From Minisyncoccota bacterium (lineage in GTDB: Bacteria > Patescibacteriota > Minisyncoccia > UBA6257), in contig JBAZEI010000003.1 of NCBI GenBank assembly GCA_041654015.1, forward strand, positions 1-35,780: 35,780 bases of DNA, written 5' to 3'. The translations under genes and the position numbers were made by a program. The stretch's first letter is position 1; every line of letters begins with the position of its first letter. The notes under the pieces were generated by a model. It did no database searches. It worked only from the letters and a program-made list of their open reading frames with translations, and had not been told where the DNA came from. This document shows, piece by piece, positions 7,672 through 29,066 of this stretch.

Positions 7672-7790
7672 GGGGTTGACCCCCACCTTTTAGAAAAAGA
7701 CGGGGGTTGACCCCCACACCAAACGAGAACTGACTTCGTCAAAATTTAACGCCTTTGGCGTTTTGTTCTCATTATGGTGTGGGGGTTGAC
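7672..7790. repeat. Three copies of a GGGGTTGAC(CCCCAC) motif plus a long imperfect inverted repeat enclosing two small hairpins
   Basis: GGGGTTGACCCCCAC at 7672-7686 and 7703-7717, and GGGGTTGAC at 7782-7790. CCCCCACACCAAACGAGAAC (7711-7730) pairs with GTTCTCATTATGGTGTGGGGG (7765-7785). The inner hairpins are TGAC-TTC-GTCA and AACGCC-TTT-GGCGTT. Confidence 0.7.
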
Positions 7791-11115: not shown

Positions 11116-11239
11116 GTCAACCCCGTTAGAGATTCAACCAAACTTCTCAATAATATAAAGGTTATAAGGCGAAGCCGCCTCTCGGCTATGGTCATTAAAA
11201 TGGATAAACTAACTTAAATCTCTAACGGGGTCAATTGAC
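11116..11239. mobile_element. MITE-like element or structured RNA with 15-bp perfect terminal inverted repeats
   Basis: GTCAACCCCGTTAGAGATT (11116-11134) pairs with AATCTCTAACGGGGTCAATTGAC (11217-11239). ACCCCGTTAGAGATT and AATCTCTAACGGGGT are perfectly complementary. It starts with the same GTCAACCCC 9-mer (reverse complement of GGGGTTGAC) seen at 7672-7790. Confidence 0.45.
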
Positions 11240-20323: not shown

Positions 20324-20629
20324 TGTTTCACGCACAACATTGTGTGTAACAAAGTGTGAAACATTGTGTGAAACAAAGTGTGAAACATTTTTGAATTGTT
20401 TCACGCGCAACATTGTGTGAAACAAAGTGTGAAACAATATTAACAGAGCGGTTTTTAAAGTTTGGCTCAAAGATTTGGCTTATTTTAGCGCAAACCTGGT
20501 TAGAAAACCAGGTTTTGGCTTTATAGAGCCAAAAATAACTTTAATAGAGGGAAAATGAATCAAATTGTTTCACGCGCAACATTGTGTGAAACAAAGTGTG
20601 AAACATTGTGTGTAACAAAGTGTGAAACA
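20324..20629. repeat. Array of 13 TGTG(A/T)AACA sites in three blocks flanking a ~120-bp hairpin-rich core
   Basis: Ten direct copies at strict 12-bp phasing, starting at 20343, 20355, 20367, 20379; 20415, 20427; 20585, 20597, 20609, 20621. Each block is preceded by an inverted copy TGTTTCACG (20324, 20397, 20566). Confidence 0.95.
20492..20516 (+). terminator. Stem-loop AAACCTGGTT-AGAA-AACCAGGTTT followed by T; possible intrinsic terminator in the core of the repeat array
   Basis: 10-bp perfect stem with a T-run partly inside the stem. A second hairpin TTGGCT-TTATAG-AGCCAA follows at about 20514-20531. Confidence 0.4.
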
Positions 20630-20810
20630 ATTTAGTTTAGCGAATAGTGTTTATTGGGCAATATTAAAAACTTTCTTTGATTAAAATCCAGAGGATTTTA
20701 CAGAATGATTCTCTTCCAGTGTTTCCACCGGCTGTAATTTTTGATGAATTCTTTTCTATTAAAACGAGGCGCAAGGCGCCGAGCGAGGCGAATTCCGTTA
20801 TAAATGAATT

Positions 20811-20998
20811 TTGGTGGACCCGAGGGGAATCGAACCCCTGCTTCGGCAACTTGCCCGCCTAAATTGTTATTTGTGTGGACTTAGCGAGAATCGAACTCGC
20901 ATTTCCGCAATGCGAATGCGGTGTACTACCATTGTACTATAAGCCCAGCAATTTAGGCGGGTGAACGAATGCCGTGTAATGCCACTATACTACGGGCC
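20811..20998 (-). tRNA. Interrupted outer tRNA-like gene (Ala-type acceptor G3:U70, A73, encoded CCA) with a 121-nt anticodon loop that contains tRNA-Ala(CGC)
   Basis: Minus strand: GGGCCCG-TA-GTAT-AGTGGCA-TTAC-A-CGGCA[121 nt]TGCCG-AAGC-AGGGG-TTCGATT-CCCCT-CGGGTCC-A-CCA. The acceptor, D, anticodon and T stems all pair, and the T-loop is canonical. Confidence 0.55.
20875..20945 (-). tRNA. tRNA-Ala (anticodon CGC), nested inside the outer tRNA-like gene
   Basis: GGGCTTA-TA-GTAC-AATGGTA-GTAC-A-CCGCA-TTCGCAT-TGCGG-AAAT-GCGAG-TTCGATT-CTCGC-TAAGTCC-A. G3:U70 and A73 are present. CCA not encoded. Confidence 0.9.
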
Positions 20999-21119
20999 CA
21001 AAGGAATTAGAAATTCTTTTATTATTTATTTGTTTTAAATAGAATAGCAAGAATGATTTTAATTGACAAGCGATAATTCTGGGTGTATATTCGCAATAGC
21101 TTAAAAATAAAAATTAACT

Positions 21120-21320
21120 ATGGGATGCAAAATGGAATTCAAAGTTGATAAATCAATTTGTATTGGTTGCGGCGCTTGTATCGGGATTTGCCCTAATGGG
21201 GCAATTAAAATAGAGAAGGATGGAAAATCCTCTATTGATCAAAAAAAGTGTAAACACTGCGGTGAGTGTCAAAAGGTGTGCCCGATGAAGGCTATCAAAG
21301 TAATTAAAAAGCTTAATTAA
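21120..21320 (+). CDS. 2x[4Fe-4S] ferredoxin
   Basis: CIGCGACIGICP and CKHCGECQKVCP motifs in 66 aa. The start may instead be the second ATG (MEFKV, 21132). Confidence 0.85.
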   Translation: MGCKMEFKVDKSICIGCGACIGICPNGAIKIEKDGKSSIDQKKCKHCGECQKVCPMKAIKVIKKLN

Positions 21321-21332
21321 ATTAAGCTTTTT
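21306..21332. terminator. Perfect palindrome AAAAAGCTTAAT-TAA-ATTAAGCTTTTT, a bidirectional terminator-like hairpin
   Basis: 12-bp arms; the loop TAA is the ferredoxin stop codon. A- and T-runs flank it on both sides, and it lies between the ferredoxin gene (+) and tRNA-Pro (-). Confidence 0.6.
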
Positions 21333-21349
21333 AAAATTATGATATTTAG

Positions 21350-21423
21350 GTGGTCGGGGCATCCAGACTTGAACTGGAACTAAATCCTCCCAAAGGACTC
21401 GTGCTGCCATTACACTATGCCCC
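21350..21423 (-). tRNA. tRNA-Pro (anticodon TGG)
   Basis: CGGGGCA-TA-GTGT-AATGGCA-GCAC-G-AGTCC-TTTGGGA-GGATT-TAGT-TCCAG-TTCAAGT-CTGGA-TGCCCCG-A-CCA. It has C1:G72, G37 and an encoded CCA. Confidence 0.9.
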
Positions 21424-21431
21424 GCATTTGT

Positions 21432-21503
21432 GTCTCCCTGGGAGGAGTCGAACCTCCATCAACGGCTTAGAAGGCCGCCACTCTATCCATTGAGCTACAG
21501 GGA
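21432..21503 (-). tRNA. tRNA-Arg (anticodon TCT)
   Basis: CTCCCTG-TA-GCTC-AATGGATA-GAGT-G-GCGGC-CTTCTAA-GCCGT-TGAT-GGAGG-TTCGACT-CCTCC-CAGGGAG-A. CCA not encoded. It lies 8 nt from tRNA-Pro. Confidence 0.88.
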
Positions 21504-21587
21504 GTATTTTAATCTTATCATATCTTTGATTGAAATAAAAGATTTTTTTGTTTATAATGAAGTAAAAATGGGGCTTATGCTTTAAAG

Positions 21588-22673
21588 ATGAATATGTTGA
21601 AAGGAAAATTTGTAGTTTGCGCCTATTGTGGTAGAAAGATATATCGATCACTTACTGAATTACGCAGAAAATCTAAAACGGGAGTTTATTTTTGTAATCT
21701 ATCTTGTCATTGCGCTTGGAGAAATAAGCAAAGAAAAAGTAAGAAGAGATTCAAATTACTAAAAAATTTATGGGGATCGTGGTGTAATAGTAGCACTAGG
21801 ACCTGTGGAGTCCTCGGTACGGATGCAAATTCCGTCGATCCCCCATTTTTCTTTCTAAAATTTTTAAAGTCCAAGAAGAAAACTAACGCTTTATTTCTTA
21901 AGCGGCCATCAAAGAAAATTCTTTATAATCTTTATTGGAAAAAGAATTATACTCAAACTGAAATAGCTGAAATTTTTAATGCCACTCACACTAGCGTGAA
22001 GAGATGGTTTAACTATTATAGAATTCCAGTGAAGCGTCGAACTTTATCTTGTGGTCATAATCCTAATACTTTAAAGAATTTAAAATTAGGTCGCACAGAC
22101 AAAGCTATTAGAAAATCGGCAGAAGCAAGAAGAATTTATTCAAAAGAAAAACTCATTGAGAAAATAAAAGATTTTGTTCAAAAAGAAGGAAGAATTCCTA
22201 TAAAGAACGAATTTATTAATAATTCCTTCTATCCAGATTATGTTACTTACAGACATTATTTTGGCACTTGGAATAATGCTATCAAGGCAGCGGGCTACAA
22301 GCCAAATGAGCAATGGTTTACCTCAGGAAATTTATTTGCTAAAGATGGACATAAATGTGATTCAATTTCAGAAATAATCATTGACGATTGGTTGTTTGAA
22401 AATCATATTCCACACATTAGAGAGTATTTATACCCGGAAGGACGATATCGCTGTGATTTTATAGTTGGCGATACTTTTATTGAATTTTTTGGTTTATTTA
22501 ATATTTCTATTGTTCCAAATTATACTGAAATCATTAAAAGAAAAAAGGAAATATGTAGGAAATTTAATATTTCCCTTGTTGAACTCTACGAGAAGGATCT
22601 TTATAGATTAGATCAATCCTTAGGACCAAAAATTGGGGTTCCTTTTGCGTCGCATATTACAACAAAAACTTGA
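21588..22673 (+). CDS. Zinc-ribbon / HTH / homing-endonuclease-associated repeat / PD-(D/E)xK-like nuclease protein; the ORF reads straight through a tRNA-His gene
   Basis: N-terminus CAYCGRKIYRS...FCNLSCHC (zinc ribbon). HTH is YTQTEIAEIFNATHTSVKRWFNYY. GRIPIKNEFINNSFYPDYVTYRHYFGTWNNAIKAAGY is a homing-endonuclease-associated repeat style segment. The C-terminus DSISEIIIDDWLFENHIPHIREYLYPEGRYRCDFIVGDTFIEFFG looks like a restriction-endonuclease-like fold. There is no in-frame ATG after codon 3, and the first in-frame GTG/TTG lies inside the HTH. Confidence 0.6.
   Translation: MNMLKGKFVVCAYCGRKIYRSLTELRRKSKTGVYFCNLSCHCAWRNKQRKSKKRFKLLKNLWGSWCNSSTRTCGVLGTDANSVDPPFFFLKFLKSKKKTNALFLKRPSKKILYNLYWKKNYTQTEIAEIFNATHTSVKRWFNYYRIPVKRRTLSCGHNPNTLKNLKLGRTDKAIRKSAEARRIYSKEKLIEKIKDFVQKEGRIPIKNEFINNSFYPDYVTYRHYFGTWNNAIKAAGYKPNEQWFTSGNLFAKDGHKCDSISEIIIDDWLFENHIPHIREYLYPEGRYRCDFIVGDTFIEFFGLFNISIVPNYTEIIKRKKEICRKFNISLVELYEKDLYRLDQSLGPKIGVPFASHITTKT
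21772..21843 (+). tRNA. tRNA-His (anticodon GTG) with encoded G-1 and C73
   Basis: G(-1)-GGGATCG-TG-GTGT-AATAGTA-GCAC-T-AGGAC-CTGTGGA-GTCCT-CGGT-ACGGA-TGCAAAT-TCCGT-CGATCCC-C. G-1:C73 is the His hallmark. Unusual features: T-loop TGCAAAT (G at position 55) and a D-loop without GG. Confidence 0.75.
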
Positions 22674-22699
22674 CAAATTATTTTGTTTTGCTATAATAG

Positions 22700-22748
22700 A
22701 AATGCCGTTGTTTGAAGGAGCTTGCTCCAACGAACAGCGGCATTTTTT
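22700..22748 (+). terminator. Long imperfect hairpin plus T-run, downstream of the 21588-22673 ORF
   Basis: AAATGCCG...GGAGC-TT-GCTCC...CGGCATTT followed by TTTTT. Confidence 0.55.
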
Positions 22749-22755
22749 ATTAAAG

Positions 22756-22785
22756 AAAACAACCCCGATAATCGGGGTTGTTTTT
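22756..22785. terminator. Bidirectional terminator-like hairpin AAAACAACCCCGAT-A-ATCGGGGTTGTTTT
   Basis: Near-perfect palindrome flanked by an A-run and a T-run. It sits 12 nt from the stop of the minus-strand 614-aa gene. Confidence 0.7.
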
Positions 22786-22796
22786 GCTAGCAATTT

Positions 22797-24641
22797 TTAA
22801 TTCTGGCGCATAGTCCGACGACAAGTATATGCTAACCAAATATCGCGGGTTTTACTTTCTACTTTCGCTAAAGCCAATTGGCCCTTGGGATTAAACTTTA
22901 AGTAATACCAAATAGCAAAAGTCAGTATTAAGCTGATGATGGATGATATAAGGAAAGCATTTGGAGACCCGGTTTTAACAGTAGCTGCTCCGGCAACTAG
23001 ACCGTAAGTAATAGTAGCGCTGTCAGTTACTTTATTTTGGTTATCGGCTGTTGCTTCGGCAGTATTAGTTTGGCTGAGATAGGTAGGTGAGTAAGCGTTA
23101 GTGGATGCCTGAAAAGTAATGGTTTTGCTAGTTCCCCGGTAAATAGTGCCTAACGATAAACCTGTTGTTGTGATAGTATCAGGTTGTGTAATTCCGTTTA
23201 TCTTTGTAGTCCCTGACATATAGGTAAGGGTGCTAGGCAAAGGATCTTTAACAATAACATTATGAAGGTCTGTGTTGCTGCCAGCGTTTACAGTAAGGTG
23301 GAACTCAATAACATCTCCTTGAGTAATTTGGATTACTTTTGAATAAACTCTACTGCCGGAAGAAAGATTGCGGCCTAATTTAGTGAGACTTAAATTAGTT
23401 CCGATAGGAGTGGTATAAATTGTGACAGATTGAGATATTGACCCACAATTACTGTGGCCATAACAGGTTAAAGTGTAAGTAGTGTTATTAGATGGAGAAA
23501 TACTTTCAATTCCGCTGGTTGATTTTGTGCCAGTCCACCCATTTGAGGCGACACAATAACTTGTGTAGTTGCTGCCCCACCGAAGATAAGTGGTTTCTCC
23601 TTGGCTAAGACTATATTTATCAGCCCAAAGATTAATTGTTGGTGGATTAATACATTGGTTGCCGCTGCTATAGATATAAGCATTACAAGAAGTGCTAGCG
23701 CTTCTGCCTTGTGAATCAGAGACAGTTAAATATGCTGTATAGGTTCCAATATTTGAAAAAGATGTTTGGTAATAAGAATTATAGCCATAGGCTGAGCCAG
23801 ACCAATAATAAGAATAATTGCCTAAGCCGCCGCTAACATTACTATAAAAGGTTATGGTTTGGTTAGTTTGAGCTGAACTAGGAGAAGCATAACAAGAAAC
23901 AGAAAGAGGAGAAATTTCTTGTTTACAAACATCTAAACAGCTGGAATATGAAGTGTATGGCCCGGAATAATCTTGGTAACATTGCCAGGTATTAGTGTTG
24001 CAAGAGTATCTTATGGGAGCAGTACAATTAGCTTGGCAATTGCTTAAAGAAGTATATTGGCCATAATAATCTTGGTAACATTGCCAGGTATTAGTGTTGC
24101 AAGAATATCTTATGGGAGCAGTACAATTAGCTTGGCAAGTGCTTAAGGAAGTATAGGGGCCATGGCTATCTTGGTAGCATTGCCAGGTAGAGGTATTACA
24201 AGCATAATGAGTAACTGGCGCTTGGCAATTAGCCTGACAAGTGCTTAAAGAAGTATATTGGCCAGACCCGCAATTAGCTTCAACACATTGCCAGGTATTA
24301 GTGTTACAGTTATATGTGGTATGGCATAGAGGATGAGTTGTTGTAGTGGTCATTACAATATGAGGGCGAGTTGTTGTGGTAGTCTGGCAGGTGCCACTAT
24401 GGCATAAGGGATGGCTAGCTATTATTGGAGTAGTATCGTTATCATGATGATTCTCATAATGGCTATCTATATCTGTATAGTTTTCAACAATACCACTGCC
24501 AGTAACTATAATTGCGGCTTCAGTATAAATTGGCGCCATTAATTCAAATAACAAAAACCCGCCTGTTAAAAGGCTTAAAATTATGTTTTTTTGCTCTGTT
24601 TTAAAATTAAATAATCTCATATTTTTATTAAATTTTTTCAT
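22797..24641 (-). CDS. Secreted or cell-surface protein: four 4-Cys modules, PKD/Ig-like domains, a DUF11-like repeat and a C-terminal hydrophobic anchor
   Basis: Signal/anchor (IILSLLTGGFLLFELMAPIYTEAA). Four ~33-aa modules follow, of the form CNTNTWQC(Y/V)..x..YTSLS.CQANC.AP. Next comes a PKD-like segment (SGGLGNYSYYWSG...YTAYLTVSDSQG) and then LTVNAGSNTDLHNVIVKDPLPSTLTYMSGTTKINGI (DUF11 style). The end is AATVKTGSPNAFLISSIISLILTFAIWYYLKFNPKG. Confidence 0.75.
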   Translation of the reverse strand: MKKFNKNMRLFNFKTEQKNIILSLLTGGFLLFELMAPIYTEAAIIVTGSGIVENYTDIDSHYENHHDNDTTPIIASHPLCHSGTCQTTTTTRPHIVMTTTTTHPLCHTTYNCNTNTWQCVEANCGSGQYTSLSTCQANCQAPVTHYACNTSTWQCYQDSHGPYTSLSTCQANCTAPIRYSCNTNTWQCYQDYYGQYTSLSNCQANCTAPIRYSCNTNTWQCYQDYSGPYTSYSSCLDVCKQEISPLSVSCYASPSSAQTNQTITFYSNVSGGLGNYSYYWSGSAYGYNSYYQTSFSNIGTYTAYLTVSDSQGRSASTSCNAYIYSSGNQCINPPTINLWADKYSLSQGETTYLRWGSNYTSYCVASNGWTGTKSTSGIESISPSNNTTYTLTCYGHSNCGSISQSVTIYTTPIGTNLSLTKLGRNLSSGSRVYSKVIQITQGDVIEFHLTVNAGSNTDLHNVIVKDPLPSTLTYMSGTTKINGITQPDTITTTGLSLGTIYRGTSKTITFQASTNAYSPTYLSQTNTAEATADNQNKVTDSATITYGLVAGAATVKTGSPNAFLISSIISLILTFAIWYYLKFNPKGQLALAKVESKTRDIWLAYTCRRTMRQN

Positions 24642-24925
24642 TTATTTTTAGCGAACCGCTCCTTTGCTTAACTGATTAAAATAATAGCATATACTATTAT
24701 AATTGTCAATAGTGAATGAGATATTATGCTTGATGGCTGAAAATAGTTAGATCCAGTTAATAAACATTATCACAAAATATAATGAATGTCAACATTAATT
24801 AAAAATTAAATAAAAAAAATAAAAAATCAAGAAGATAAAGATAAAATAAAATAATGATAAAATTGATTTTTAAGAAAATAAGAGTTAGAATAAATACAAA
24901 GATCTTGTAAAGATCTTCTTTATTT

Positions 24926-25115
24926 GCAGGTAGAGTATAAGTGGCAGTATGGAACCCTTCCCTGCCTGCCATCGCCTTACGCGGGTGTAGCACAGTGGTA
25001 GTGCAACGGCCTTCCAAGCCGTGGACGTGGGTTCGATCCCCATCACCCGCTCATCGGCTCAGGCAGAAGGCGGGTAGGCAAGGTTCAGGCACGGGCTAGA
25101 GTCCCGTTACCCGCT
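24926..25115 (+). pseudogene. Second interrupted outer tRNA-like gene (Gly-type: U73, C2:G71, loop CTTCC..AA), partly degenerate, containing tRNA-Gly(TCC)
   Basis: GCAGGTA-GA-GTAT-AAGTGGCA-GTAT-G-GAACC[125 nt]GGTTC-AGGC-ACGGG-CTAGAGT-CCCGT-TACCCGC-T. The anticodon stem pairs perfectly and the acceptor pairs 6 of 7 (A3.C70). The T-loop CTAGAGT and G8 are non-canonical. Confidence 0.45.
24981..25051 (+). tRNA. tRNA-Gly (anticodon TCC), nested inside the outer tRNA-like gene
   Basis: GCGGGTG-TA-GCAC-AGTGGTA-GTGC-A-ACGGC-CTTCCAA-GCCGT-GGAC-GTGGG-TTCGATC-CCCAT-CACCCGC-T. Confidence 0.9.
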
Positions 25116-28789: not shown

Positions 28790-29066
28790 GAATGTAGCCT
28801 CCGCCTTCGCCAGCGTCTGAAGCCGCAGGCTATGGCGGACAAGCCCGCCTCCGCTTCCACCTCCGCTAAAGCTTCGGTGGATAAAAAAGCTACGGTGGAC
28901 AAGCCCGCCTCCGCTTCCACCTCCGCTAAAGCTTCGGTGGATAAAAAAGCTACGGTGGACAAGCCCGCCTTCGCTAAAGCTACGGCGGGCAGGGAAGAAT
29001 CTCTCGTTTCCTTTCAGTCATTCTGAGGCCGTAAGGCCGAAGAATCTCTCGCGAATGCGAGAATTA
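28790..29066. repeat. GC-rich structured repeat region immediately upstream of gyrA
   Basis: A 60-bp unit GGACAAGCCCGCCTCCGCTTCCACCTCCGCTAAAGCTTCGGTGGATAAAAAAGCTACGGT occurs at 28837-28896 and is perfectly repeated at 28897-28956, with a partial third copy. Hairpin GCCCGCC-14 nt-GGCGGGC at 28963-28990. Direct repeat GAAGAATCTCTCG at 28995 and 29039. Further hairpins: ATTCTGAGGCC-GTAA-GGCCGAAGAAT (GNRA loop) and TCTCGC-GAAT-GCGAGA. Confidence 0.9.

Follow-up and report, generated by a model that had tools for sequence, protein, structure and literature searches.

The window analysed here, the whole 35,780-nucleotide stretch of contig JBAZEI010000003.1 (assembly GCA_041654015.1, Minisyncoccota bacterium), holds two loci, one for alanine and one for glycine, at which a complete tRNA gene lies inside a tRNA gene of the same amino acid. 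Both nests are real. At each, the inserted cassette consists of inverted arms of 10 to 13 bp anchored by CCC/GGG, short spacers and a full canonical tRNA gene that shares amino acid and strand with the gene around it. Judged against the corresponding loci of relatives, the cassette is a foreign segment of ~ 116-118 bp that interrupts the anticodon loop of a resident single-copy tRNA gene. The likely course, in our view, is that the cassette, non-autonomous and bearing a tRNA between its inverted repeats, puts the resident cognate tRNA gene out of action and takes over its role.

Two tRNA genes nested in cognate tRNA genes

The contig has a G+C content of 35% and belongs to the candidate phyla radiation (CPR; Patescibacteria), and its NusA, trigger factor, GyrA and TrpRS are bacterial proteins. 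ARAGORN and Rfam together identify seven ordinary tRNA genes in the window. The inner tRNA-Ala(CGC) is placed by ARAGORN at c20875-20946 and the inner tRNA-Gly(TCC) at 24981-25052, and with Rfam scores of 70.3 and 72.9 bits respectively, and 71/71 model positions each, they are the top two tRNAs of the window. When introns are allowed, ARAGORN also calls an enclosing tRNA-Ala at c20812-20999 with a 114-nt "intron", while the outer tRNA-Gly (24926-25115) is not called even then because it is degenerate. In the outer Ala the stems are intact, the T loop (TTCGATT) is canonical, CCA is encoded and G3:U70 and A73 are present, while the outer Gly displays U73. G3:U70, A73 and U73 had been pointed out in an earlier sequence-only reading of this DNA, as had the length of both inner genes (71 nt to the discriminator) and the sizes of the inserts (114 and 118 nt beyond a 7-nt loop), and all of these measurements hold.

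The arms of the Ala cassette (CCCGCCTAAATTG / CAATTTAGGCGGG) pair at 13/13 positions and those of the Gly cassette (CCTGCCTGCC / GGCGGGTAGG) at 10/10, two of the latter being G-U pairs. An unconstrained minimum free energy fold of the 200-nt Ala region gives a cloverleaf within a cloverleaf, with the perfect 13-bp helix joining them. The Gly insert is exactly 118 nt long (24961-25078) and lies between C35 and C36 as a clean insertion, its limits being set by comparison of the filled locus of the window with the empty one of L050, a relative whose TrpRS is 89% identical. The Ala cassette is 116 nt long and replaces C36-A37 of the resident loop; the remnant of that loop, TTCG, is the same as the start of the inner Ala loop. 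At the 3' side, the sequence-only reading had AGGCGGG..CAAG directly before the 3' strand of the anticodon stem at both loci. The motif does adjoin the stem, but in Ala (AGGCGGG-CAAG-T-TGCCG) a single loop nucleotide separates CAAG from it and in Gly (AGGCGGGTAGG-CAA-GGTTC) G39 is itself the final G of "CAAG". Four independent Logan assemblies from different sequencing runs contain the Gly nest without a single base difference. The parts of the two loci are as follows.

20970..20999, minus strand: outer (resident) tRNA-Ala, 5' half to the 5' anticodon-stem strand (GGGCCCG...CGGCA), from ARAGORN and orthology to L051-L054
20966..20969, minus strand: outer Ala anticodon-loop remnant, positions 32-35 (TTCG), C34 and G35 being the first two anticodon bases
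20850..20965, minus strand: Ala cassette, made of TTCA, 13-nt arm, CT, inner tRNA, 9-nt spacer, 13-nt arm and CAAG
20876..20946, minus strand: inner tRNA-Ala(CGC), 71 nt, canonical, presumed functional gene (ARAGORN, Rfam)
20812..20849, minus strand: outer Ala 3' part, with T38, 3' anticodon-stem strand, T arm, acceptor 3' strand, A73 and CCA
24926..24960, plus strand: outer (resident) tRNA-Gly(TCC), 5' half and loop positions 32-35 (CTTC), degenerate, from orthology
24961..25078, plus strand: Gly cassette, 118 nt, made of arm CCTGCCTGCC, 10-nt spacer, inner tRNA, 17 nt and arm GGCGGGTAGG
24981..25051, plus strand: inner tRNA-Gly(TCC), 71 nt, canonical, presumed functional gene (ARAGORN, Rfam)
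25079..25115, plus strand: outer Gly 3' part, with C36, A37, A38, stem, T arm, degenerate T loop (CTAGAGT), acceptor 3' strand, U73 and no CCA
21021..21069, minus strand: promoter-like hexamers TTGTCA-17-TATTCT and TTGCTA-18-AATAAT upstream of the outer Ala 5' end, by consensus match only
20768..20780, minus strand: terminator-like hairpin and T run beyond the 3' end of the outer Ala
24863..24891, plus strand: promoter-like TTGATT-17-TAGAAT upstream of the outer Gly, kept upstream of the uninterrupted gene of relatives

Only 2-10 nt precede the inner genes within the cassettes, and nothing promoter-like fits there. As a separate observation, a cluster of GTGTGAAACA / TTGTTTCAC repeats lies downstream of the Ala locus (20560-20640) and is shared with the resident tRNA-Ala of L051-L054 and with L236; it may be a protein-binding array.

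Resident alleles, foreign alleles and a metagenomic family

The trpS neighbourhoods of 45 genomes and contigs encoding the closest TrpRS proteins were compared, the nearest genes being found in metagenome-assembled genomes (MAGs) labelled Paceibacterota, Parcubacteria or "Saccharibacteria". In ~ 15 related genomes (L001-L007, L050-L057) the tRNA-Gly(TCC) gene immediately upstream of trpS is uninterrupted and is preceded by the promoter-like and hairpin sequence that is also found in the window. This is also the case in L050, the closest relative, and the window is thus the filled counterpart of empty alleles in L050, L051, L055 and L004. Joined at C35|C36, the outer Gly halves of the window give the uninterrupted gene of these relatives, decay changes aside. 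Hence, the outer Gly is the resident orthologue and the 118 nt are a clean insertion, while the inner Gly is a quite different allele. Five derived changes have accumulated in the outer gene: G3A, which breaks G3:C70, U8G, U54C, C56A and an additional D-loop A. Four of the five affect positions that are universally conserved or determine identity, and the CCA present in several relatives has been lost. In contrast, tRNA-Pro and tRNA-Arg, 400 nt from the outer Gly, are 100% identical to those of L050 (Fisher p = 0.0035 for the contrast with the outer Gly). By these changes, the outer Gly is a decaying pseudogene.

At the Ala locus, the outer gene shares 64/72 positions with the resident tRNA-Ala(CGC) of L051-L054 and is followed by the same downstream GTTTCACAC repeats, whereas the best match of the inner gene is the resident Ala of L055 (65/72); only 53/73 positions are identical between inner and outer. 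Given that the outer Ala is undecayed and that its differences from L051 are compensated, the Ala insertion is probably young. The homologues of an endonuclease-like open reading frame (ORF) of the window, described below, led to L218 (GCA_964479005.1, also Logan L219), which is syntenic with the window over NusA-YraN-[Ala]-Pro-Arg and carries the reciprocal nest: its outer allele, "B", is like the inner one of the window and its inner allele, "A", is like the outer one. The arms of that nest (CCCCCACACCAT/ATGGTGTGGGGG) differ from those of the window and pair perfectly. CAAG-T precedes the outer 3' stem as in the window, and the outer anticodon is destroyed, with a loop remnant of TTTTTA. A further relative, L236, very close to the window (ClpP 91% identical), holds a B{C} nest at the same locus, so that a single Ala locus displays the states A, B, A{B}, B{A} and B{C} among relatives. 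The target had been taken to be a cognate paralogue; it is cognate, but it is the resident single-copy orthologue.

A search pattern was then built from three nests and consisted of an inner T loop, 26-40 nt, RGGCAAG, 12-15 nt and another T loop, a spacing of T loops too tight for the matches to be tandem genes. At least 120 loci in metagenome contigs match this nest pattern. Among the matches listed, 93/124 have an ARAGORN tRNA exactly at the inner position, and in ~ 34 an enclosing "intron-containing" tRNA is called by ARAGORN itself. Strict parsing, which takes in the arms, the outer anticodon stem and the outer acceptor stem, leaves at least 37 nests (at least 34 unique). In the strict nests listed the inner identities are Ala (CGC, GGC, TGC), Val (TAC, CAC, GAC), Gly (CCC, TCC) and Glu (TTC). 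A scan of every tRNA in the fetched loci added Pro (CGG, TGG), Arg (TCT) and one three-layer Val nest, the junctions of all of which fall outside the pattern. In viral contigs the same pattern gave three hits, which are chance, non-nested matches.

The nest contigs range from 32 to 53% G+C and several share the NusA-YraN-tRNA-Ala synteny of the window. RNase Y of one of them, L284, is 93% identical to that of a Candidatus Torokbacteria genome, while the window and its relatives are Paceibacterota/Parcubacteria-like. Hence, the family spans several CPR lineages. The defined cassette proposed from the letters of this window, GC-rich arms carrying a tRNA into a cognate gene, is in this way found as a large family of constant architecture, with many further members in CPR-like contigs and in MAGs such as L218.

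The like-in-like rule, suggested at first by Ala in Ala and Gly in Gly, extends to 33/34 of the unique strict nests listed: with 260 unique reference tRNAs of all identities as the reference, the joined outer halves are nearest to the amino acid of the inner gene. The surviving outer positions 34-35 match the inner anticodon, with a CGC outer around a UGC inner as the sole exception. Throughout the family the inner gene lies on the same strand as the outer, and the cassettes measure 104-131 nt. The commonest junction reads N32-N35 + TTCA + CCC(C/G)-arm ... tRNA ... arm-(G/C)GGG + CAAG + N38, with C36-A37 replaced, and the TTCA-CCC..GGG-CAAG ends of the Ala cassette are found in more than 20 metagenome nests. 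A shorter variant keeps only T32 and T33 (TT+TTCA). Insertion therefore follows position 35, or sometimes 33, and not position 36/37, whose constancy the sequence-only reading had put up for testing. Most Gly nests, with the one of the window in their group, combine the arms CCCGCCTGCC/GGCGGGCAGG with a clean insertion that follows C35. The inner Gly allele of the window (GCGGGTGTAGCACA..) recurs, near-identical and with the same arm type, inside different outer genes in L284, L347 and L306. The Pro nests read CTTG-CCCCC...GGGGG-TGAA, which is the reverse complement of TTCA...CAAG, the backbone being inverted relative to both cargo and target; since the tetranucleotides invert together with the backbone, they belong to the element.

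Arms of 10-15 bp are found across the family. In 26 nests of the commonest junction, 97.7% of the cells are paired and 9/12 arm pairs display double-sided changes. The covariation of the arms is 0.84 as compared to 0.19 when shuffled, and does not exceed 0.18 when the pairing partner is slid. The GGCGGG..CAAG motif that the two loci of the window share is a family feature, but its arm sequence varies and covaries, and CAAG is partly native loop sequence in Gly.

At least 11/81 distinct nests possess an additional "3' arm + CAAG + 3' half" outside the first outer gene. Three layers are seen in L310, L239, L267 and L224, and four to five successive 5' halves in L238. The outermost layers often have degenerate T loops, or halves with extra hairpin insertions. 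Turnover of the alleles is seen in eight pairs in which the outer gene of one nest is at least 85% identical to the inner gene of another. Two details of the layered loci may be added. The outermost, dead Val 5' halves of L310 and L321 carry additional CCCGCC...GGCGGG hairpin insertions in the D loop; non-functional layers seem to accumulate empty-arm elements. On the minus strand of L238 (~ 1300-1800), each of the four to five Ala 5' halves is followed by a 5' arm and only two 3' halves are present, an imbalance that suggests deletions between directly repeated arms of different layers.

Arm-bearing elements without tRNA and the neighbouring tRNA-His

The cassette arms also flank 40-170 nt of non-tRNA sequence, within 4-nt direct repeats of the form T-N-N-A (TCAA, TTGA, TTTA, TCCA, TAAA and TGAA). 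Since the arms recur without a tRNA, the cassettes are members of a wider family of small inverted-repeat elements. The window holds four arm-bearing elements in all, of which two have no tRNA.

11117..11234, plus strand: tRNA-less element, arms CCCCGTTAGAGATT / AATCTCTAACGGGG around 82 nt, flanks TCAA/TCAA
7707..7789, plus strand: tRNA-less element, arms CCCCCACACCA / TGGTGTGGGGG, flanks TTGA/TTGA

The arm of the element at 11117-11234 is the commonest cassette arm, CCCCGTTAGAGAT, and homologues with a conserved interior are present in L218 and L236. The arms of the element at 7707-7789 are those of the L218/L236 Ala nests and of the L306 Pro nest. In L222 one tRNA-less element lies exactly at the 3' end of a tRNA-Ala. 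The gyrA leader of the window (28829-28996) consists of three tandem 60-nt units, each with a CCCGCC..GGYGGR hairpin followed by CAAG. A resemblance of its GC-rich repeats to the arm motif had been noted from the letters, and it is in part real: the window contains CTTCCCTGCC at just two places, namely the 5' junction of the Gly nest and, on the minus strand, the gyrA leader (28988), and GGCGGGCAGG of the leader is the 3' arm common to most metagenome Gly nests. It is plausible that the leader is an array of empty-arm hairpins linked to the cassettes.

Between the two nests, an ORF of 361 amino acids (21588-22673, plus strand) encodes a zinc ribbon, a helix-turn-helix and the Pfam "homing endonuclease associated repeat" (PF18780). 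Sequence searches of its C-terminus in Pfam and the PDB gave no match, so that the fold search alone is informative there. The best match of the predicted C-terminal fold is the catalytic domain of the homing endonuclease I-Bth0305I (probability 1.0), followed by TnsA and Vsr, and the protein is predicted to be PD-(D/E)xK homing-endonuclease-like. A complete, unusual tRNA-His with the T loop TGCAAAT lies in frame inside this ORF (21773-21844) and is translated as a low-confidence linker (predicted local distance difference test score below 50, residues 57-103). Approximately 50 CPR homologues keep the tRNA-coded peptide, while shorter homologues are without it. In relatives that have no such ORF (L050, L051, L055 and L004) a conserved, different resident tRNA-His and a terminator occupy that spot, whereas the nest-bearing L218 has the same ORF element at the same site. 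As the resident His gene has been replaced like those for Ala and Gly, 3/5 tRNA genes of this 4.3-kb stretch are element-borne copies.

Directly after the ORF, at 22670-22760, a promoter in perfect agreement with the sigma-70 consensus (TTGACA-16-TATAAT with TG) precedes a hairpin of 40 nt and a T run. The arrangement could represent a small RNA or a remnant, and its Rfam matches are sub-threshold only. The gyrA gene of L055 (9906-13682) contains an intein with a LAGLIDADG domain and the gyrA match of L009 (5388-9224) is split by ~ 1.4 kb, which are signs of a heavy selfish-element load in the clade.

Mobility of the cassettes, rival explanations and known systems

The reading that we favour, that of a cassette which destroys the resident gene and replaces its function, implies the following course of events. 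Transcription of the nest would begin at the resident promoter-like site and end at the resident terminator, the arms would pair and close off the inner cloverleaf from the look-alike outer halves, and RNase P and the 3'-end enzymes would free the inner tRNA, which would then decode. The outer halves would be dead on arrival. The cassettes themselves would be cargo-carrying, non-autonomous small inverted-repeat elements, moved as DNA by an enzyme encoded elsewhere (in trans). Like would be found in like because a hit on an essential single-copy tRNA gene is survived only if the cargo replaces the lost function, so that survivorship, possibly together with a targeting step, would give the rule. 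The new inner gene would be the next target, and Russian dolls would result.

Several points weigh against this reading. No target-site duplication is found at the tRNA nests, where the flanks are TTCA and CAAG and the Gly insertion is clean, whereas the tRNA-less relatives have their 4-nt direct repeats. Clustering of the ORFs around 62 nest loci shows no enriched transposase or other enzyme and brings up housekeeping genes only (HU, YraN, NusA, LemA, TsaD). Distant 5' arms with an ORF between them were sought as an autonomous long cassette, and none was found. No free-standing tRNA cassette, that is arms and tRNA outside a tRNA gene, is present in the sampled loci; random transposition followed by selection should have left such copies, and a targeting step therefore probably exists. 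Nor does the reading account for one arm type carrying different tRNAs, and the processing of the inner tRNA is a step that we infer. The outer Ala shows no decay, its presumed loss of function following from the interrupted loop alone. Furthermore, the pattern demanded ..GGCAAG.. and two canonical T loops, so that ascertainment biases both how constant CAAG looks and which amino acids are listed; the Val nest of L224, found independently of the pattern, has other junctions. Finally, with registers chosen by Watson-Crick pairs only, the arm mismatches are G-T versus A-C in a ratio of 16:12, which is not significant, and selection for an RNA helix is thus not separable from DNA inverted repeats. 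A G-T excess of 41:7 was rejected as the product of a register search that admitted G-T pairs.

Models of an integron attC-like or IS200/IS605-like kind, conservative site-specific recombination and a simple target-site duplication were weighed for the junctions by reasoning, and none of them gives N32-35 + TTCA...CAAG + N38. The inner Gly and inner Ala sequences have no match in viral contigs, and there is thus no sign of phage-borne cargo tRNAs. A first generic pattern (inner T loop + AGGCGG..GCAAG) gave 40 hits in viral contigs, all of them chance matches in GC-rich coding DNA. An arm-agnostic pattern (two T loops closer than tandem genes allow) returned noise, tandem tRNAs and T-loop-like repeats, with no true nest among the viral-contig matches listed.

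A bolder suggestion, which we make tentatively and hold to be possible but somewhat doubtful, is that these are no ordinary transposons but new selfish "gene-for-gene replacement" elements that would recognise the anticodon stem-loop of particular tRNA genes, by a tRNA-gene-specific nuclease, for instance one of the endonuclease-like family with the embedded tRNA-His, or by pairing of cargo and target, and supply a resistant allele. Because each insertion would both kill an essential gene and supply the resistant allele, the element could not be lost. If true, an arms race of successive elements, recorded as Russian-doll tRNA genes, would drive tRNA turnover in CPR genomes.

Homing concerns the mobility step only, and we consider it unlikely. 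Here, a nuclease would break the anticodon-loop DNA of the resident gene and repair would capture the cassette with its cut-resistant allele, the candidate being the endonuclease-like family encoded between the nests. As the nuclease would recognise that tRNA gene and the outer halves would give the homology, like in like would have a mechanistic origin. The presence/absence polymorphism at identical sites among relatives agrees with this, and so do the nests without target-site duplication. Junctions come in a variant of 6 nt (TT+TTCA) and one of 8 nt (NNNN+TTCA), both with CAAG+N38, and look like the outcome of variable end processing around 34-37, and the anticodon stem of the inner alleles always differs from that of the outer ones. 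Moreover, the ORF between the nests has swapped the resident tRNA-His for its own embedded one, and nests are found in 3/3 ORF-positive as compared to 0/4 ORF-negative genomes (Fisher p = 0.03), in a sample that is very small and not independent. However, the same cassette lineage occurs in outer genes that are at most 75% identical, and halves of ~ 30 nt are a poor substrate for homologous repair. The ends stay TTCA/CAAG whether the target is Ala, Val, Gly or Glu, and Pro nests have an inverted backbone; both argue for an element with defined ends, and no nuclease is encoded in the cassettes, those for Ala and Gly being without an endonuclease gene.

An RNA-level explanation, in which the insert is cut from the transcript as an intron-like element and the outer halves are joined so that both tRNAs are made, is very improbable. 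Its position in the anticodon loop would suit an intron, the arms bring the outer halves together like the leader/trailer helices of archaeal split tRNAs, and the outer Ala of the window keeps its stems, T loop and CCA. But the insert measures 114-118 nt, of which 71 are the tRNA, and Rfam gives no group I or other ribozyme match, neither at the gathering score nor at E<=1. No bulge-helix-bulge is present either: the internal loops are of 8x5 nt in Ala and 4x3 in Gly, followed by the helix of 10-13 bp, the folds have no 3-nt bulges 4 bp apart, and the organism is bacterial. In the outer Gly, U8, U54 and C56 are gone and the G3:C70 pair is broken. No cut-and-join of the Ala loop gives an Ala anticodon in a 7-nt loop, and ARAGORN gives Leu/Arg. 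Many related outer genes keep TT+TTCA only, and the outermost layers degenerate progressively. With the conserved bases of the outer Gly lost and the anticodons of many related outer genes gone, splicing would hardly restore a tRNA. The intron-like structure that duplicates its host, offered by the sequence-only reading beside the cassette, has to be abandoned for the same loss of conserved bases in the outer Gly and because the two genes are different alleles, as the 53/73 identity in Ala illustrates.

Duplication in situ, whereby the host tRNA gene is copied into its own anticodon loop without foreign DNA, is hardly credible. Inner and outer genes do have the same amino acid and mostly the same anticodon, but they differ at ~ 27% of positions, compensated stem changes included. 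The inner alleles match residents of other lineages (L055 for Ala) or recur in different outer genes (L284, L347 and L306 for Gly), and reciprocal nests are found at the same locus in related genomes. An assembly or binning artefact, the chimeric join of two tRNA-containing reads, is a negligible prospect, since, although the contig is metagenome-assembled and tRNA genes are repeats that can trip assemblers, the locus is identical in four independent assemblies from different runs and the same precise, symmetrical structure is present in dozens of unrelated assemblies and NCBI MAGs.

If the cassettes act by replacement, they would represent a third route of survival in an essential RNA gene, that of carrying a full working copy, beside splicing (introns) and partial restoration (integrative elements). 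The nests suggest horizontal exchange and fast turnover of tRNA alleles in reduced genomes, and each of them would be a dated stack of former alleles, usable for reconstructing allele history. Standard tRNA finders do not see the outer halves and layered relics, and these inflate or confuse the tRNA counts of CPR genomes, which is of consequence for annotation. The nests also raise the matters of gene-specific targeting without an encoded protein and of the processing of highly structured multi-tRNA precursors in CPR bacteria. In practical terms, the cassette is a natural design for tRNA expression from within another gene.

Among known systems, the nearest are integrative elements, by which a split tRNA gene is restored, and free-standing homing endonucleases of tRNA clusters. 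Integrative elements (phages, islands, plasmids, pNOB8/SSV types) enter tRNA genes and carry a tRNA segment that restores the gene, and Williams is said to have described in 2002 the sublocation preferences of integrases within tRNA genes. Like the cassettes, these elements target tRNA genes, often in the anticodon loop, bring tRNA sequence in compensation and leave fragments. An element of this kind, which restores the tRNA gene split by it, is known at the tRNA-Thr locus of Caldiarchaeum (PMC3293823). Such elements, however, span kilobases and possess an integrase gene; of the tRNA they copy only the 3' part, as an att repeat, while the resident 5' part stays in use. The cassettes, in contrast, are of ~ 116 bp, have no protein gene, bring a whole tRNA and abandon the resident gene on both sides. 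The Ala and Gly cassettes have no ORF, and neither a duplicated tRNA segment nor an att-type repeat flanks them.

Split and permuted tRNA genes have been described in Nanoarchaeum, Caldivirga and Cyanidioschyzon (PMC3978253, PMC4033280). In split tRNAs, too, the halves lie apart in the DNA and are brought together by GC-rich complementary sequences, but these halves are joined to a functional tRNA, whereas in the nests collinear halves flank a complete tRNA and appear to be relics. A selfish replacement of tRNA alleles is also seen with SegB of phage T4, a free-standing homing endonuclease that drives the inheritance of tRNA gene regions. There, the allele is replaced by a linked, presumably resistant one, while the cassettes carry no endonuclease and the outcome is nesting rather than allele replacement.

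Group I introns possess a ribozyme core, P3-P9, and are typically longer than 200 nt. tRNA introns resemble the cassettes in their anticodon-loop position and in that an insertion in an essential RNA gene is made tolerable. In the cassettes, by contrast, tolerance would come from replacement and not from splicing, there is neither a ribozyme nor a bulge-helix-bulge, and the outer exons decay. Known tRNA introns include those of group I in the anticodon loops of bacteria and those of the bulge-helix-bulge type in archaea and eukaryotes, and reviews of them are available (PMC4090602, PMC3984707). The full-text literature searched contains no report of cognate-nested tRNA genes or of such CPR cassettes, an absence that is not proof of novelty.

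The cassettes also share features with small non-autonomous elements. Miniature inverted-repeat transposable elements (MITEs), Rickettsia palindromic elements, Correia elements and the cargo capture of Pack-MULE type are established examples. As with the cassettes, MITEs are small and non-coding, have terminal inverted repeats, occur in many copies (for the cassettes, dozens in metagenomes) and are able to sit inside genes, and they are mobilised in trans, as the cassettes would be. No transposase was found near the nests, and no long version of the cassette. The target-site duplication of MITEs is matched by the 4-nt direct repeats of the tRNA-less relatives, whereas the tRNA nests are without it. 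The cassettes further differ from MITEs in that their cargo is a presumably functional copy of the gene hit, in that the insertions found lie in cognate tRNA genes only and in that the nesting is iterated. Thus, the cassette resembles a small inverted-repeat element with cargo, but its repeated hit on the cognate gene, together with self-compensation, is to our knowledge unprecedented.

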